From the sequence record OR670491: 64,000 nucleotides of DNA, one strand, 5' to 3'. The DNA comes from Escherichia phage vB_EcoM_JNE01. The position numbers and the translations under genes were made by a program. A model generated the notes under the pieces. That model saw only the letters and a list, made by a program, of their open reading frames with translations. It ran no database searches and was not told the origin of the DNA. This document shows, one piece after another, positions 1,931-10,172 of the stretch (position 1 is its first letter; each line of letters opens with the position of its first letter).

Positions 1931-2263
1931 ATGAGATTCAGTGATTTAACTGAAGAAGCTCCAGGAAAAGACATACGCAATATGATTACTACTATTGCGT
2001 TGTCTTTAGTATCTTCGGGTAGAGAAGAAGTTAACGTTCAGTCTTTAGTTTCTGAAATTAAAAAGAGAACCAACATTGACGTTCCTTACAACGTTTTGAT
2101 GGATATCTTAAACTCTCTACCATTTGTTCAGGATGCAAATTCTGATGTTGTTACCTTCGCAGGTAATGACTCACAGACTTCCGGTGATATGGAACAAAAT
2201 TCCGATGAACAAGTTGAAGACTGGGCTACTAAAGCTGCTGTGTCAGCTAACAAGCAAAAATAA
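1931..2263 (+). CDS. hypothetical protein
   Basis: 110-aa ORF, RBS AAGGA upstream. Confidence 0.45.
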   Translation: MRFSDLTEEAPGKDIRNMITTIALSLVSSGREEVNVQSLVSEIKKRTNIDVPYNVLMDILNSLPFVQDANSDVVTFAGNDSQTSGDMEQNSDEQVEDWATKAAVSANKQK

Positions 2264-2306
2264 TTTAGACAAACGAAAATACGATGCTATAATTAGGAGT
2301 ACATGG

Positions 2307-3026
2307 ATGTACATACCACCAATTGTTAGCAGATATACATATTTGGATTACAAGCGAATTGAAGGCGGCCCAGAAGGTCGCCTTTATTCAACTCCAACTG
2401 GGAATCTGCCGTCAGTAACAACAATCTTGAGTGCGACCTCTGATAACGAGGGTCTTAAAAAATGGCGAGAGTTTGTTGGAGAAGAGAAAGCTAATGAAAT
2501 AACATTAGAAGCATGTACTGTTGGAACATTCATGCATGAAAACTTAGAATTCCGTTTAGACGGTAAACCAGACCACCAAGGTGGAATGCCGATACGTGTA
2601 CTGGCTCGACGAATGGCAGATAAGATTCAGGAAGAAGCATGGCCTAAAATCAATGAAGTGTGGGGACAAGAAGTACCACTATTTTATGAAGGTTTGTGGG
2701 CTGGGACAACAGACTTAGTGGGGGTACATGACGGTATACCAACTATCATGGACTATAAGAATTCCCGTAAAATGAAAACATGGGAACATATTGAAAATTA
2801 TCGAATGCAGATTGCAGCTTATGCTCTTTCTCATAACCAAATGTTCGGGACTAATATCGAACGTGGTGTGATTTTCATCTGTGTAAGGAACGATCCTGCT
2901 AACCTTAAATATCAAGAGTTCGTTATTGAAGGACAAGACTTCAAAGACGCAGTTGATATGTGGATTGGTAGAGTTGAACAATATTATATTTTACGTGGAG
3001 AGATTGAATCAAATGGAACAGCATAA
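2307..3026 (+). CDS. PD-(D/E)XK family nuclease (Cas4/RecB-like exonuclease)
   Basis: Start reset to ATG 2307 after RBS AGGAG; motif VHDG...IMDYK fits the D...(D/E)xK catalytic core. Confidence 0.55.
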   Translation: MYIPPIVSRYTYLDYKRIEGGPEGRLYSTPTGNLPSVTTILSATSDNEGLKKWREFVGEEKANEITLEACTVGTFMHENLEFRLDGKPDHQGGMPIRVLARRMADKIQEEAWPKINEVWGQEVPLFYEGLWAGTTDLVGVHDGIPTIMDYKNSRKMKTWEHIENYRMQIAAYALSHNQMFGTNIERGVIFICVRNDPANLKYQEFVIEGQDFKDAVDMWIGRVEQYYILRGEIESNGTA

Positions 3027-3598: not shown

Positions 3599-4180
3599 AT
3601 GGCACAACAACAAGTCGCGTTACAGCAAGTACGCACAGGAAAGCAACGTGATTTACCAGATGCCTTAGAAAAAGGACAAATCGGATTCAGTACTGATGTA
3701 GGTCGTGTATTCATAGGTTTACCGTCTACATCAGACCCAGCAAGTTTAGTTGCTGGGCGTACTTGGGTAACTAATCCAAATTCTGGTAAAGAAAACGTAG
3801 AAATTATTACAGAATTTTCACCGTGGCAAACAGTATCAGGGATTGTAAACAGACCATTCGCAGTAGAATTACTTCAGGGTCAACAATCTATTGATGTATT
3901 CATTGATAGTCAGAGTCGAGTATTCTTAGACTACATTGCATATAATACCAATGGCACAGTGTTAGAATCAGGTACAGTACAAATGGTAGCAGTTGGTACT
4001 AATACCTTGATTTCACAATTTAACAACACGAGCCGAAGTGATGCAGTACTTTCAATACTATTTTCTAATCCAGTTTATAATACATCAACTGGAAGTATGC
4101 AATTTAGTATAGAGAATACTGATTACGTTAACTCCGGTTATAACATAGAATTTGTATATCGTGGGTGGGACAAACCTTAA
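3599..4180 (+). CDS. hypothetical protein
   Basis: 193-aa ORF, RBS TAGGAGTGAG, followed by a terminator hairpin. Confidence 0.5.
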   Translation: MAQQQVALQQVRTGKQRDLPDALEKGQIGFSTDVGRVFIGLPSTSDPASLVAGRTWVTNPNSGKENVEIITEFSPWQTVSGIVNRPFAVELLQGQQSIDVFIDSQSRVFLDYIAYNTNGTVLESGTVQMVAVGTNTLISQFNNTSRSDAVLSILFSNPVYNTSTGSMQFSIENTDYVNSGYNIEFVYRGWDKP

Positions 4181-4199
4181 AGGCGTCCCGCCTTTTTCT
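4179..4199 (+). terminator. rho-independent terminator
   Basis: AAAGGCG-TCC-CGCCTTT hairpin followed by T-rich tract. Confidence 0.5.
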
Positions 4200-4245
4200 T
4201 CCACTAAATTTAACGAAATTAAAAAACATAAGAAAAGGATGACAC

Positions 4246-6564
4246 ATGATCAACGTAACCAAGCGTAATGGAACAAAAGAACCATTAGATTTGGATAAAA
4301 TCCATCAGATTTTATTTTTTGCTGCTGAAGGTCTTAGCGGTATTTCTGTATCAGAAATTGAAATTCGTGCACAGCTTCAATTCTACGAAGGAATCGAAAC
4401 TAAAGAAATCCATGACATTTTGATTAAATCAGCTTCTGAGCTAATTACTGAGGAAACTCCAAACTACCAATATGTTGCTGGTCGCCTGTTGAACTATAGC
4501 ATCCGTAAGCAAGTGTATGGTGATTACGAGCCAATCAAATATTCAGCACATGTTCAGGAAATGGTTGACATTGAAATCTATGATGCTGAGATTCTAGAAA
4601 AGTATACTCTTCAAGAAATTGAAGAACTTGGTAAGTACATCAAACATAAGCGTGATGATAAATTCACTTATGTTGCAATGCGTCAATGGGAAGGGAAATA
4701 CCTTTACAAAAACCGTGTAACCAAAAAAATCTACGAAACTCCACAGATGGCATATATGACTATTGCAGCAATCATCTTTATGGAGTATGATCGTTCAATT
4801 CGTATGTCTTACGTTAAGAAGTTCTATGATGCAGTAAGTAACTTTGACCTAAGCCTACCAACTCCAATCATGGCAGGACTACGCACAAATACGCGTCAGT
4901 TTAGCTCATGTGTAGTACTGAACGTTGGTGATAGCCTAGACAGCATTGGTTCCTCTAACCATGCCATTCTTCGTTATATCTCCCGTAAAGCAGGTCTAGG
5001 TGTCAACATGGGTCGTATCCGTGCACTTGACTCTGAGATCCGTGGTGGTGATGCAGTGCATACTGGTTTGATTCCATTCATTGCTGGTGTTGCTAAAACA
5101 GTTAAAAGCTGTTCACAAGGTGGTGTTCGTGGTGGTGCAGCAACTGTACACTTCCCGTTATGGCATCTTGAATTTGATAGCCTAATTGTACTGAAGAACA
5201 ACAAAGGTACTGAGTTCAACCGTGTGCGTCAATTGGACTATTGTTTCCAAGTGAATAAAACACTATATCAACGTTTAGTTGATGGTAAGAACATCACCTT
5301 CTTTAGTCCTAATGAAGTTCCAGGGCTATATGAAGCATTCTGTTCTAACCAAAAAGAATTCGAACGTCTATACAAAAAATACGAAGCTGACCCAGCAATT
5401 CGTAAAATCAGTAAACCAGCAGTTGAAGTGTTCTCTACACTAATGACTGAACGTTCTGAAACTGGTCGCATTTATATTCAAAACATCGATCATGCAAACA
5501 CTCACTCAACATTCGATGAGAGTATTGCACCAATCGAACAATCCAACCTTTGTCAAGAAATCGCATTGCCATCTGTGCCATTCGATGACATTAACACTGG
5601 TGACGGACTGATTAGCCTATGTACACTAAGTGCAATTAACTGGGGTAACTTTGATAAGCCAGAAGATATGGAAACTGCATGTGATCTATCCATCCGTGCT
5701 CTTGACTCCTTGTTGGATTACCAAGACTATCCAGTAGTACATGCTGACCGTGCTACCAATCTATATCGCCCACTAGGTGTAGGTATCATTAACTTCGCAT
5801 ACTTCCTAGCTAAACGTGGATTGAAGTACAATGAGCAAGCACTTGAAACTGTAAACACTTGGGCTGAAGCATGGTCTTATTACTTGCTTAAATCCTCTGT
5901 TCAGTTAGCAAAAGAAAAAGGTCGTTGTGAAGGGTTTGAAAACCTAAAATATGCTAAAGGTATTCTACCAATCGATACATATAAATCAGATATTGATGAA
6001 CTAGTAGGTACTGAATTAAAACAAGATTGGGAATCTCTACGTGCTGATATCAAAACTTACGGTATCCGTAACGCTACAACTATGGCACTAATGCCAGCAG
6101 AAACCAGTGCACAGATTAGTAACAGTACTAACGGTATTGAGAAACCTCGTTCACTAGTATCTACTAAACTATCTAAAGATGGTATCTTGCGTCAAGTAGT
6201 TCCAGAGATTCATAAGTTGAAAAACAAATATGATTTACTATGGGATCAAAAAGATAACATTGGTTATCTACAAATTTGTGGTGTACTACAAAAATACATT
6301 GACCAAAGTATTAGTGTGAATACCAGCTACAACCCAGCACATAGTCCTGATGGTAAAATCTCTATGACTACACTTCTAACTGAAGTCATGTATGCATATA
6401 AAGTTGGTTTGAAAAACTTGTATTATCACAATACAAATGATGGTTCAGATGAAATTGATGTTGATAAAGCACTAAAAGATGCATCAACTAAAGAGAACAA
6501 CGGTCTAGTACTTCCTGACCTATCAGGTGAAGACCTAGATGGTTGTGATAGCTGCAAGATCTAA
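4246..6564 (+). CDS. nrdA: ribonucleotide reductase class Ia large subunit
   Basis: 772 aa; ATP-cone N-terminus (VTKRNGTKEPLDLDKIH), SSCVL active-site region, GGVRGGAAT, C-terminal Cys pair; collinear with E. coli NrdA as recalled. Confidence 0.95.
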   Translation: MINVTKRNGTKEPLDLDKIHQILFFAAEGLSGISVSEIEIRAQLQFYEGIETKEIHDILIKSASELITEETPNYQYVAGRLLNYSIRKQVYGDYEPIKYSAHVQEMVDIEIYDAEILEKYTLQEIEELGKYIKHKRDDKFTYVAMRQWEGKYLYKNRVTKKIYETPQMAYMTIAAIIFMEYDRSIRMSYVKKFYDAVSNFDLSLPTPIMAGLRTNTRQFSSCVVLNVGDSLDSIGSSNHAILRYISRKAGLGVNMGRIRALDSEIRGGDAVHTGLIPFIAGVAKTVKSCSQGGVRGGAATVHFPLWHLEFDSLIVLKNNKGTEFNRVRQLDYCFQVNKTLYQRLVDGKNITFFSPNEVPGLYEAFCSNQKEFERLYKKYEADPAIRKISKPAVEVFSTLMTERSETGRIYIQNIDHANTHSTFDESIAPIEQSNLCQEIALPSVPFDDINTGDGLISLCTLSAINWGNFDKPEDMETACDLSIRALDSLLDYQDYPVVHADRATNLYRPLGVGIINFAYFLAKRGLKYNEQALETVNTWAEAWSYYLLKSSVQLAKEKGRCEGFENLKYAKGILPIDTYKSDIDELVGTELKQDWESLRADIKTYGIRNATTMALMPAETSAQISNSTNGIEKPRSLVSTKLSKDGILRQVVPEIHKLKNKYDLLWDQKDNIGYLQICGVLQKYIDQSISVNTSYNPAHSPDGKISMTTLLTEVMYAYKVGLKNLYYHNTNDGSDEIDVDKALKDASTKENNGLVLPDLSGEDLDGCDSCKI

Positions 6565-6575
6565 TAATTATAATT

Positions 6576-6600
6576 AATCCCACTTCGGTGGGATTTTTCT
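6576..6600 (+). terminator. rho-independent terminator
   Basis: ATCCCAC-TTCG-GTGGGAT hairpin plus TTTTCT. Confidence 0.6.
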
Positions 6601-6615
6601 TAAAGTGGAGATATA

Positions 6616-7389
6616 ATGAAAATTGATTATCACAATCCAATCCCATTAGATTTCATTGAGGAATTTTGGGACGAGCTTGACATAGATCTTATTGCAAGGT
6701 ATCAAAAATTACCGGAAGATTTCATAAAGAAACATTTTGATAAAATGAATCCTAATATGTTAGTTCGATATCAAACAATGACTACCGATTTTATTAAAGA
6801 AAAATGGGAATGGTTTGATAAAAACGTAATTGCAACGTATGTGGTTATGCCATTGGAATTGATAATGGAAAAGTGGGATGATTTTAAAGGTAATTTTCTT
6901 GATACCGTTGCGAAATATCAAACAATGACTGTGGATTTCATTAAAGAAAAATGGAATGACCTTACTGAATTTTCCGATGGTGTAATGTCAGAAATATCCA
7001 GATATCAAAAATTAACTCTTGACTTCATACAAGAAAAATGGGATTATATTGATAAAAATTATATCTCTTATTATCAAACACTAACAGTTGATTTTATAAA
7101 AGAAAATTTAGCTGCATTAAATGTCGCTGCCGTATCCGCATTCCAAATTATGGAAGACGATGTTCGAGCTATGCTAGGATTAAATTCACCTGCTGAAACG
7201 ATCACAGGAAAACAAATTCTTGCTTTTGATCCGTGTGCTGATGGGATGGCACGATATCATGCACATACGCCAGATGACAACACTGTACTGACGTGGAATG
7301 AACTTTTAGAAAAACATTTAGGTACACAAGCTGGCATCAGTGACATTCACTGGTTGTCGTATAAATTGGGTCATAAAATTAATACATAA
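6616..7389 (+). CDS. tandem-repeat protein, unknown function
   Basis: Six degenerate ~24-aa repeats of type xxYQ(K/T)(L/M)TxDFIKEKWxxxDKNxI; sits between nrdA and nrdB. Confidence 0.5.
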   Translation: MKIDYHNPIPLDFIEEFWDELDIDLIARYQKLPEDFIKKHFDKMNPNMLVRYQTMTTDFIKEKWEWFDKNVIATYVVMPLELIMEKWDDFKGNFLDTVAKYQTMTVDFIKEKWNDLTEFSDGVMSEISRYQKLTLDFIQEKWDYIDKNYISYYQTLTVDFIKENLAALNVAAVSAFQIMEDDVRAMLGLNSPAETITGKQILAFDPCADGMARYHAHTPDDNTVLTWNELLEKHLGTQAGISDIHWLSYKLGHKINT

Positions 7390-7398
7390 GGAAATGTA

Positions 7399-8523
7399 AT
7401 GTCCGTATTTAAAATTAACGAAAAATCGCATCTAGAAAAAAATATGTTCTTTGATGAAAGTGTTGACATTCAACGCTTTGAGAGTGTAAAGTACTCTGCA
7501 CTTGAAAAACTCACTGAGCAACAGAAAAGCTTTTTCTGGACTCCAGGTGAAGTAGACGTTTCGAAAGATAAGATTGACTTTGCATCTCTTTCTGTAGCTG
7601 AGAAGCATATCTTTACATCTAACCTAAAACGTCAAATCCTTCTAGATTCAGTACAAGGACGTGGCCCGAATCTAATGCTACTTCCATATGCGTCACTGCC
7701 TGAACTAGAAAACTTTATTGAGACTTGGGCTTTCTTTGAAGGTGCAATTCACAGTAAATCATATACACATATTATTCGTAACATCTATCCTAATCCTTCT
7801 GAAGTATTTGATACTATGTTGGACATTCCAGAGATTACTTCATGTGCTGCTGATGTATCTAAGTATTATGATTCTCTAGATGAACTAGGAACTCTATACA
7901 AATTGTTAGGTGAAGGTACACATACTATCAATGGTAAAGAAGTTATTGTTGATATGTACGAACTTAAAAAGCGTATGTGGTTGTGCCTGAACAGTATCAA
8001 CATCCTTGAGGGTGTACGATTCTATGCGAGCTTTGCATGTTCATGGGCGTTTGCTGAAAATAAACTAATGGAAGGTAATGCTAAAATCATCCGTCTAATC
8101 TGTCGTGATGAGAACCTTCACTTAGCAGCAACACAAATGATCTTGCGTTTGCTCAAGAAAGAAGATCCAGATTTTGCTAAACTTGCAGAAGAATGTGCAG
8201 ATGAAGTTCAAGACATGTTTATGCAAGCAATCAAACAAGAAGAAGAGTGGGCTGACTTCCTATTCAAAGATGGCTCCATTATCGGTTTGAACGCAGAAAT
8301 CCTTAAACAGTATGTACGTTATATCGGTGCTAAACGTATGAATGCGTTAGGTATTAAACCTCCATTCACTGTATCTAAACATAACCCTATCCCTTGGACT
8401 GAACACTGGGTTAGTGGTGGTTCTGTACAGGTAGCTCCACAAGAAACTGAAATCAGTTCTTACATCATCGGTGGTATTGTGAATGATGTAACTGAAGGTG
8501 CATTTGCACCATTCAAACTATAA
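7399..8523 (+). CDS. nrdB: ribonucleotide reductase class Ia small subunit
   Basis: 374 aa; FFWTPGEVDVSKD and LLDSVQGRGPN regions typical of R2; RBS AAGGAAA. Confidence 0.9.
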   Translation: MSVFKINEKSHLEKNMFFDESVDIQRFESVKYSALEKLTEQQKSFFWTPGEVDVSKDKIDFASLSVAEKHIFTSNLKRQILLDSVQGRGPNLMLLPYASLPELENFIETWAFFEGAIHSKSYTHIIRNIYPNPSEVFDTMLDIPEITSCAADVSKYYDSLDELGTLYKLLGEGTHTINGKEVIVDMYELKKRMWLCLNSINILEGVRFYASFACSWAFAENKLMEGNAKIIRLICRDENLHLAATQMILRLLKKEDPDFAKLAEECADEVQDMFMQAIKQEEEWADFLFKDGSIIGLNAEILKQYVRYIGAKRMNALGIKPPFTVSKHNPIPWTEHWVSGGSVQVAPQETEISSYIIGGIVNDVTEGAFAPFKL

Positions 8524-8532
8524 GATTAAACG

Positions 8533-8555
8533 AGGGATTCACATGAATCCCTTTA
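8533..8555 (+). terminator. putative terminator hairpin
   Basis: GGGATTC-ACAT-GAATCCC hairpin, short T tract. Confidence 0.4.
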
Positions 8556-8570
8556 CTATGGATTAAGAAT

Positions 8571-8756
8571 ATGAAAGATATTTTCACGATAGATCCTGGC
8601 GTTGTCTATGACTTCTATCTCGTTGGTGGACTTAAGGTTTCTGGTCCAGTTATCCAAGCTGCCCCAAATGGTCTAGTACTGATTGATGGCACACACATTG
8701 TTCAAGAGCACATCATTATGTTTAAACCGCAATATGATGAAAATTCTGGACAATAA
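8571..8756 (+). CDS. hypothetical protein
   Basis: 61-aa ORF. Confidence 0.35.
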   Translation: MKDIFTIDPGVVYDFYLVGGLKVSGPVIQAAPNGLVLIDGTHIVQEHIIMFKPQYDENSGQ

Positions 8757-8784
8757 CAAGCACTGTGATATAATTATTTTGTAA

Positions 8785-9036
<252 letters not shown>

Positions 9037-9048
9037 GAGGATATAATA

Positions 9049-10172
<1,124 letters not shown>

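Follow-up and report, generated by a model that had tools for sequence, protein, structure and literature searches.

ORF257, an accessory tryptophan-repeat gene in the variable nrdA–nrdB slot of RaK2-like jumbo phages

The DNA analyzed here is a 64,000-nt stretch of Escherichia phage vB_EcoM_JNE01 (sequence record OR670491; hereafter the window), which is from a RaK2-like (Asteriusvirus-type) jumbo coliphage. The features around its ribonucleotide reductase genes are listed in Table 1. The large subunit NrdA contains the Pfam domains ATP-cone, Ribonuc_red_lgN, and Ribonuc_red_lgC (E = 6e-118), and the gene that follows it, here termed ORF257, is separated from nrdB by 9 nt. A tight ORF–nrdB junction (9–13 nt) is common to CBB, Ecwhy_1, and the viral contigs described below. 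The initial annotation had reported a 257-aa ORF between nrdA and nrdB, and this was borne out by the ORF coordinates and the Pfam matches of the neighbors; within the observation as a whole, the ORF, its location, and its repeats stood, whereas the repeat number and a pair of terminators did not. The product of ORF257 has a mass of 30.3 kDa, a pI of 4.7, and a net charge of −17, and its acidity lies mostly in the repeat region. The GC content of the gene is 32.8%, versus 35.5% for the window, and no paralogue was found within the 64 kb.

Table 1. Features of the nrdA–nrdB region (window coordinates)
Feature	Position	Strand	Remarks
nrdA, class Ia ribonucleotide reductase large subunit	4246..6564	+	772 aa; upstream of ORF257
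Terminator-like hairpin 3' of nrdA	6576..6595	+	8-bp stem, UUCG loop, then UUUUUCUU U-tract
Shine–Dalgarno of ORF257, GGAG	6607..6610	+	5 nt 5' of ATG; read from sequence
ORF257, accessory repeat protein	6616..7389	+	257 aa; ATG start, TAA stop
Seven helix-loop-helix repeats	6628..7137 (aa 5–174)	+	23–29 aa each; repeat statistics, AlphaFold
Degenerate eighth/capping repeat	7138..7185 (aa 175–190)	+	
C-terminal non-repeat domain	7186..7386 (aa ~191–257)	+	~65–70 residues; conserved; overlooked in the initial annotation
Shine–Dalgarno of nrdB, AAGGAA	7388..7393	+	overlaps the ORF257 TAA stop; read from sequence
nrdB, ribonucleotide reductase small subunit	7399..8523	+	374 aa; Pfam Ribonuc_red_sm, E = 1e-49
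Hairpin 3' of nrdB	8532..8553	+	−12.8 kcal/mol, z = −3.4; weak U-tract

ORF257 had been described as lying between two strong terminators. Only one terminator-like hairpin flanks the gene, namely that downstream of nrdA, which folds with an MFE of −13.8 kcal/mol over a 47-nt stretch (z = −3.0). The hairpin past nrdB is probably the "second terminator" of that description, and no fold was found at the ORF257–nrdB junction (z = −0.3). Counterparts of the post-nrdA hairpin with compensatory stem changes are present in PBECO4, vB_Ec-M-J, CBB, and Ecwhy_1. Because it is found in filled and empty alleles alike, this hairpin belongs to nrdA and not to ORF257 or a cassette, and the picture of a terminator-bounded cassette is wrong. 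A moron with its own promoter and terminator was also considered and rejected, as the hairpin is upstream and not downstream of the gene, is shared with the empty alleles, and has no equivalent before nrdB. The distance from the hairpin to the ATG of ORF257 is only 20 nt. Matches to σ70-like promoters were at chance level (17 found versus 19.5 expected), and no promoter is claimed; the single match near ORF257 (6545–6574) falls within the 3' end of nrdA. No Rfam RNA family was detected in positions 4000–9000. Since the space between the hairpin and ORF257 is too short for a separate promoter and the gene abuts nrdB, ORF257 is probably expressed on the same transcripts as nrdB. These transcripts would arise by transcription through the hairpin or by initiation within the 3' end of nrdA, and ORF257 would be expressed alongside nucleotide-metabolism genes.

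Six degenerate repeats of ~24 aa had been noted in the initial annotation. The repeats were confirmed by self-alignment, in which the two halves of aa 1–190 gave a Smith–Waterman score of 130 versus 27.9 ± 5.5 for 500 shuffles, but the count was not: seven clear units (aa 5–27, 28–50, 51–73, 74–99, 100–128, 129–151, and 152–174) are followed by one degenerate unit. The repeat motif is x-I-S-x-Y-Q-x-L/M-T-x-D-F-I-K-E-K-W. At the DNA level, a 35-nt core occurs five times with spacings of 69, 147, 87, and 69 nt. Tandem Repeats Finder detected nothing in ORF257, and the repeats are therefore considered old and diverged. Repeats 4 and 5 contain insertions and show the lowest conservation across the orthologues (15–28% invariant).

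Conservation within the protein is highest in the C-terminal domain, where 53% of the positions are invariant among 14 orthologues, versus 35% in the repeats. The same domain closes short proteins of two to five repeats from metagenomes, forming a small subfamily. In one alignment with these short proteins, which begins at aa 189 in ORF257 numbering, the invariant residues are Ile201, Pro206, Cys207, Gly210, Arg213, Tyr214, Trp227, Asn228, Asp243, Trp246, and Leu247. No match to the domain was found in Pfam, NCBIfam, or PDB, including a profile search of PDB and a Pfam scan of the alignment, and the Cys-bearing domain was not detected beyond the phage and metagenome subfamily. A search for distant members of this subfamily gave only RaK2-like phages among viral contigs and none among metagenome and genome contigs. 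The C-terminal domain of ORF257 has not been described before.

The structure of ORF257 was predicted with AlphaFold from a 30-sequence alignment (pLDDT 93.9, pTM 0.84); this alignment was hand-picked and repeat-rich, which may inflate the confidence of the solenoid. A run with only five close orthologues gave a pLDDT of 61 and was discarded in favor of the 30-sequence run. In the model, each repeat forms two short helices, and the repeats are stacked as an α-solenoid. The C-terminal region is predicted to be an α/β domain with the order strand–helix–helix–strand–helix–helix, in which Cys207 begins a helix. A Foldseek search against PDB gave no match at E < 0.5 (best 0.55), indicating a family with no representative solved structure, and the full-length profile found nothing significant among PDB sequences. 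The structural scores against known α-solenoids, such as the leucine-rich repeat variant protein 1lrv, the HEAT-like PBS-lyase protein YibA (1oyz), and HEAT/ARM scaffolds, are at the level of generic solenoids. No sequence-profile relation to LRV, HEAT, or ARM proteins was found; no HEAT, Arm, or LRV Pfam match appeared even at E ≤ 1.

In PHROGs, ORF257 falls in phrog_3532 (E = 5.8e-37, aa 3–231), and no credible family was found in Pfam, NCBIfam, or PADLOC. A profile built from five orthologues matched 1545 representative proteins at E < 1e-3, 214 of them at E < 1e-10, among 1.84 billion. These family proteins are long arrays of the 23-residue unit x-I-S-x-Y-Q-x-L-S-E-x-F-I-x-x-x-x-D-x-x-x-W. 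Almost none of the 115 representatives scanned had a known domain; IBR, RuvC_1, DUF3310, and DUF7666 were single cases. When the model was compared with viral structures by Foldseek, with predicted structures on both sides, the matches were to the entomopoxvirus proteins AMV029 (E = 1.6e-9, TM 0.61), MSV027 (4.6e-9), and MSV205 (1e-8), and also to MSV029, phage G gp558–563 (gp563, 1.1e-8), and proteins of Pithovirus, Orpheovirus, and Marseillevirus (E from 1e-9 to 1e-4). ORF257 is a member of the tryptophan-repeat/PHROG 3532 family by its profile, its ~23-residue repeats, and its fold.

The entomopoxvirus tryptophan repeat family (MSV027/029/205 and AMV029) likewise has ~23-aa tandem repeats with conserved aromatic or Trp positions, and the predicted solenoids match that of ORF257 (E from 1.6e-9 to 1e-8, TM 0.57–0.61, 18–26% identity). 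On both sides the proteins are uncharacterized and modular, with a repeat array and an optional extra domain. The entomopoxvirus proteins differ in that they come from eukaryotic viruses and are usually multigene, whereas ORF257 is a single-copy phage gene with a Cys-bearing C-terminal domain and no F-box. AMV254 has been reported to combine Trp repeats with an F-box (PMC7728225). Tryptophan-repeat genes of phage G have also been described, with no known function (PMC12484599), and our literature searches did not find a functional study of the family.

A multigene or tandem arrangement is typical of the family, although not strictly defining, and ORF257 lacks it, occupying one place per RaK2-like genome. 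Weak tblastn matches to the repeats alone were found in 13 places in Listeria phage LPJP1, eight in Bacillus phage BpSp, and six in Bacillus phage G, with identities of 30–32%; the BpSp copies are annotated as "tryptophan repeat gene family protein." Phage G (gp556–563), BpSp (vB_BpuM-BpSp), LPJP1, and metagenomic contigs have arrays of 2–13 paralogues, whereas RaK2-like phages have one copy, always located between nrdA and nrdB. Of the distant homologues that share the C-terminal domain, some are in arrays with one or two further paralogues (L016, L019, L022, and L025), and others adjoin a DHH phosphoesterase, M15 peptidase, or Acb2/Tad1-like gene; none of them was found beside reductase genes. 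An apparent reductase link, a weak "Thioredoxin_17" match beside the homologue P0158, was spurious, the neighbor being another repeat paralogue.

The locus is 98% identical at the nucleotide level to that of Escherichia phage Turkey5 and 81–82% identical to those of other jumbo coliphages of the Asteriusvirus type, such as PBECO4, 121Q, and Ecwhy_1. When 50,697 phage records were searched with tblastn, 18 had full-length orthologues of ORF257 (65–82% aa identity). Eight of the carriers are of the Asteriusvirus type (80–82%), and 10 are more distant RaK2-like phages (65–67%), including CBB, fHe-Yen9-03/04, XaC1/XbC2, Kaldavass, and EJP2; the CBB orthologue is gp304 (65% identity, same slot). 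Each of the 18 phage records, and each of nine viral contigs that carry the gene, has it between nrdA and nrdB. For the phage records, this was determined with a query running from the end of nrdA through the ORF into the start of nrdB, of which exactly 18 records covered ≥80% in one place, and the position was confirmed gene by gene for CBB, Ecwhy_1, and the nine IMG/VR contigs. ORF257 is absent from PBECO4, 121Q, most other Asteriusvirus-type records, and Erwinia phage pEa_SNUABM_44. In GAP32, the slot contains a different gene of 245 aa, GAP32_299, which matches MUG113 (GIY-YIG superfamily) and phrog_681, "endonuclease" (E = 3e-53). In fHe-Yen9-04, nrdB is split by an insert of ~1 kb with an endonuclease-like ORF.

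Two pairs of near-identical viable phages differ in the presence of the gene. Turkey5 and the window share 98% nucleotide identity in nrdA and nrdB (99.5% and 99.7% aa identity for NrdA and NrdB, respectively), but Turkey5 has a 94-nt spacer in place of the ORF. Similarly, nrdA and nrdB of vB_Ec-M-J and Ecwhy_1 share 99.4–99.5% identity, also over the final 300 nt of nrdA and the initial 300 nt of nrdB, and only Ecwhy_1 has the ORF. These pairs uphold the original designation of the gene as accessory: ORF257 is dispensable, as viable near-identical phages lack it. Its presence in relatives is patchy rather than universal, and none of them has an assigned function for it.

Pairwise identities of the ORF and of NrdA are strongly correlated (r = 0.96; 45 pairs from ten ORF-bearing loci); relative to the window, the ORF and NrdA identities are 82 and 90% for Ecwhy_1, and 65 and 75% for CBB, respectively. 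The dN/dS ratio of ORF257 is 0.05–0.11, comparable to those of nrdA and nrdB, with dS saturated. These sequence comparisons indicate that ORF257 is under purifying selection and is a real gene. A recent foreign insertion, as implied by the word "inserted" in the initial annotation, is not supported, given that the slot is always the same, the divergence tracks nrdA, and the protein is under purifying selection. In that interpretation, the accessory nature of the gene holds and the scaffold idea fits the predicted solenoid, whereas the recent insertion falls away. The simplest history is that of an old slot resident with several independent losses or replacements. The slot has been occupied since before the split of RaK2-like genera with ~75% NrdA identity, and loss or exchange has been repeated with no change in the reductase. 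There is weak evidence for a deletion scar in Turkey5: its spacer is similar to the final ~25 nt of the ORF, a suggestive match (p ~ 0.013) that may simply be the shared nrdB leader, and no significant similarity was seen on the 5' side (p ~ 0.13). In vB_Ec-M-J, the empty spacer is closer to that of PBECO4 than to what a precise excision from the Ecwhy_1 allele would leave, a hint that alleles were exchanged by recombination in the short conserved flanks.

Here, we propose a function of ORF257 based on the predicted fold, the domain architecture, and analogy. With moderate confidence, we favor ORF257 as a genuine, functional, and dispensable accessory gene of RaK2-like phages whose product is likely a non-enzymatic adaptor for a host or phage target. 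The variable surface of the solenoid would capture its protein target, while a constant contact or effector function would fall to the conserved C-terminal domain. The conservation pattern, which is high in the C-terminal domain and low in repeats 4 and 5, fits a constant docking or effector end combined with an adaptable binding surface. The target is more likely to be a host factor, or one related to host range or defense, than the reductase itself. The earlier suggestion of a protein-binding scaffold fits the α-solenoid model.

A similar logic is seen in large DNA viruses in the poxvirus ankyrin-repeat/PRANC (F-box-like) host-range proteins, in which a variable N-terminal array captures the target and a small conserved C-terminal domain follows. 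The likeness is one of logic only and not of membership, as both the repeat type and the C-terminal domain differ from those of ORF257, and bacteria are not known to have a ubiquitin system. Within the tryptophan-repeat family, the F-box of AMV254, the one IBR-bearing protein among the 115 representatives, and the assorted C-terminal domains of others support such an adaptor logic. The F-box and IBR fusions stem from eukaryotic-virus members and need not hold for phages. Other observations also point away from an adaptor. The invariant Cys at the helix N-terminus could mean redox or catalytic chemistry, and the nrdA/nrdB synteny down to ~75% NrdA identity, with the tight nrdB junction, could reflect a link to the reductase.

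Such a link would make ORF257 a reductase-specific accessory protein, whose solenoid binds NrdA and/or NrdB for tethering to a dNTP/replication complex, allostery, or shielding, with the Cys domain possibly having a redox role. The strict slot in the 18 phage records and nine viral contigs, the 9–13 nt junction with the nrdB Shine–Dalgarno sequence overlapping the stop codon of the ORF, the co-divergence with nrdA (r = 0.96), and the invariant Cys that begins a helix are all consistent with this function. However, viable phages with 99.5–99.7% identical NrdA and NrdB lack the ORF, as do most Asteriusvirus-type records, and the distant homologues of the C-terminal domain are never beside reductase genes. 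Moreover, no Pfam or NCBIfam likeness to NrdI, NrdH, YfaE, or thioredoxin/glutaredoxin was found, nor any match to families of the flavodoxin, glutaredoxin, or 2Fe-2S ferredoxin kind, and the predicted fold is a solenoid with a two-strand mini-domain. Synteny in phages is also frequently historical and not functional. A reductase-specific role is unlikely on these grounds.

A broader form of the adaptor proposal can be considered, in which the repeat array is a pan-viral target-capture module of jumbo phages, entomopoxviruses, and giant viruses, the C-terminal domain is a new effector or docking domain, and the copy in the reductase operon couples dNTP supply to the neutralization of a host factor, with host-dependent losses. 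This extension is speculative, and we regard it as doubtful in its full form. If it were true, the host factor could be, for example, a nucleotide-depleting or reductase-sensing defense.

The variability of the slot also raises the possibility of a selfish or hitch-hiking cassette, which would be spread by recombination or trans-homing at a hot spot of mobile DNA, in the manner of mobE and I-TevIII in the T4 nrd locus, and give no benefit to the phage. The nrdA–nrdB spacer is a known landing site: T4 mobE is a free-standing homing endonuclease gene located between nrdA and nrdB, within their transcription unit (PMC2790892). ORF257 resembles mobE in being an optional occupant of this spacer, and its presence at this fixed site is patchy among close relatives. 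In T4, the nrdB promoter lies within mobE. The endonuclease-like gene in the GAP32 slot, the endonuclease-like ORF in the nrdB insert of fHe-Yen9-04, the variable presence of the ORF between near-identical phages, and the possible allele exchange at the empty site of vB_Ec-M-J are in line with such behavior. However, MobE is a mobile HNH nuclease, whereas ORF257 has no nuclease motif or nuclease family match in Pfam, PHROGs, or NCBIfam. The low dN/dS over deep divergence argues for selection on the protein, its divergence is concordant with that of the flanks, and its GC content is near the average. In addition, the terminator of T-even phages accompanies only mobE-bearing alleles, whereas the hairpin of RaK2-like phages is present in filled and empty alleles. 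A selfish cassette is improbable.

The low pI, the negative charge, and the elongated shape of the helical repeats could also suggest an acidic DNA mimic or anti-restriction decoy, the solenoid of which would block a host nuclease or DNA-binding defense protein, and one distant homologue is near an Acb2/Tad1-like anti-defense gene. Nevertheless, the charge varies widely (P0151, +8; P0102, −1; P0006, +9; orthologues, −5 to −10), and PADLOC gave no match to known anti-defense or defense models. As charge is not a conserved property of the family, this role is not favored and appears very improbable. A chance ORF or decaying pseudogene in the spacer, for which only the absence from many relatives speaks, is effectively refuted by the full length of 257 aa across genera, dN/dS well below 1, a proper Shine–Dalgarno sequence, and a confident fold.

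For annotation, these results indicate that RaK2-like phages vary in what occupies the nrdA–nrdB spacer, which may be empty or contain a repeat protein or an endonuclease-like gene, and a repeat protein found there should not be taken as a reductase component. The functionally uncharacterized tryptophan-repeat family extends from phages to poxviruses and giant viruses with more than 1500 representative clusters. The two pairs of viable coliphages, which are 98–99.5% identical around the site and differ by ORF257 alone, constitute a natural experiment in a tractable E. coli host. These near-isogenic pairs put the phenotype, the partner, and the structure within reach and would allow the first functional test of the tryptophan-repeat family.

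In the Cronobacter phage GAP32, the nrdA–nrdB spacer is occupied by GAP32_299, a gene other than ORF257, the repeat protein found at this position in vB_EcoM_JNE01. The product of GAP32_299 matched phrog_681 "endonuclease" with E = 3e-53 and, in Pfam, MUG113 of the GIY-YIG superfamily with a score above the cut-off; its match to DUF723 was weak. GAP32_299 is probably a free-standing homing endonuclease, and T4 mobE occupies the same site. In the Yersinia phage fHe-Yen9-04, nrdB itself is in two pieces, which encode residues 1–236 and 237–374 and flank an ORF-containing insert. This arrangement is probably an intron or a fractured gene.

The terminator-like hairpin with a UUCG loop that follows nrdA is conserved between genera, and its stem shows compensatory changes (CCCAC/GUGGG, CCCGC/GCGGG, and CCCGUC/GACGGG). 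In the near-identical relative Turkey5, one pair is broken by a G-to-A change, and the hairpin is predicted to be less stable (−5 kcal/mol against about −14). The reductase genes are flanked by genes for a PD-(D/E)XK-type exonuclease and a MazG/PRA-PH-type nucleotide pyrophosphohydrolase, and the gene order surrounding them is conserved in all RaK2-like relatives examined. The best sigma70-like match of the region is TGGACA-16-TATAAT (11/12, with an extended −10 TG), and the overall number of promoter matches is at the chance level. This match lies directly upstream of a small ORF.

Features of the reductase region and of the comparison loci
Feature	Position	Source	Remarks
GAP32_299	L005:2320-3057	Cronobacter phage GAP32	245 aa, nrdA–nrdB spacer
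nrdB, first piece	L007:5220-5927	Yersinia phage fHe-Yen9-04	
Insert between nrdB pieces	L007:5931-6970	fHe-Yen9-04	~1 kb
Insert ORF	L007:6068-6805	fHe-Yen9-04	245 aa; phrog_59 "HNH endonuclease", E = 2e-6; N-terminus looks GIY-YIG by eye
nrdB, second piece	L007:6971-7384	fHe-Yen9-04	
Post-nrdA hairpin	6576-6595	window	
Post-nrdA hairpin	L001:4079-4098; L002:3983-4002; L003:4963-4983	comparison loci	
PD-(D/E)XK-type exonuclease	2124-3026	window	weak Pfam PDDEXK_1; MGME1-like exonuclease in Turkey5 annotation
Sigma70-like match	8747-8774	window	
Small ORF	8803-9036	window	
MazG/PRA-PH-type nucleotide pyrophosphohydrolase	9435-10172	window	Pfam, E = 7e-10
Repeat-family paralogues	L019:287-3498	Logan contig SRR19753085_5677	228, 188, and 257 aa; all phrog_3532

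Among predicted viral structures (BFVD), the ORF257 model matched A0A1L2CVN3 (CBB, 264 aa), K4FBA1 (GAP32, 254 aa), and A0A2C9CY59 (fHe-Yen9-04, 264 aa) at 14–15% identity and TM scores of 0.25–0.47. These seem to represent a second, very distant solenoid protein encoded by RaK2-like phages; a profile search detected no counterpart of it in the 64-kb window.

Four metagenomic phage contigs (L016, L019, L022, and L025) each carry two or three side-by-side paralogues of the repeat family. An Acb2/Tad1-hairpin gene (anti-CBASS/Thoeris sponge-like) is located ~3.4 kb downstream of those in L019. The NCBI entry "hypothetical protein, partial [Escherichia coli]" (P0157) is an orthologue fragment with 84% identity to the C-terminal domain of ORF257. 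Because its contig (355,566 bp) is of jumbo-phage size, the source is probably a phage genome carrying a host label in public databases.
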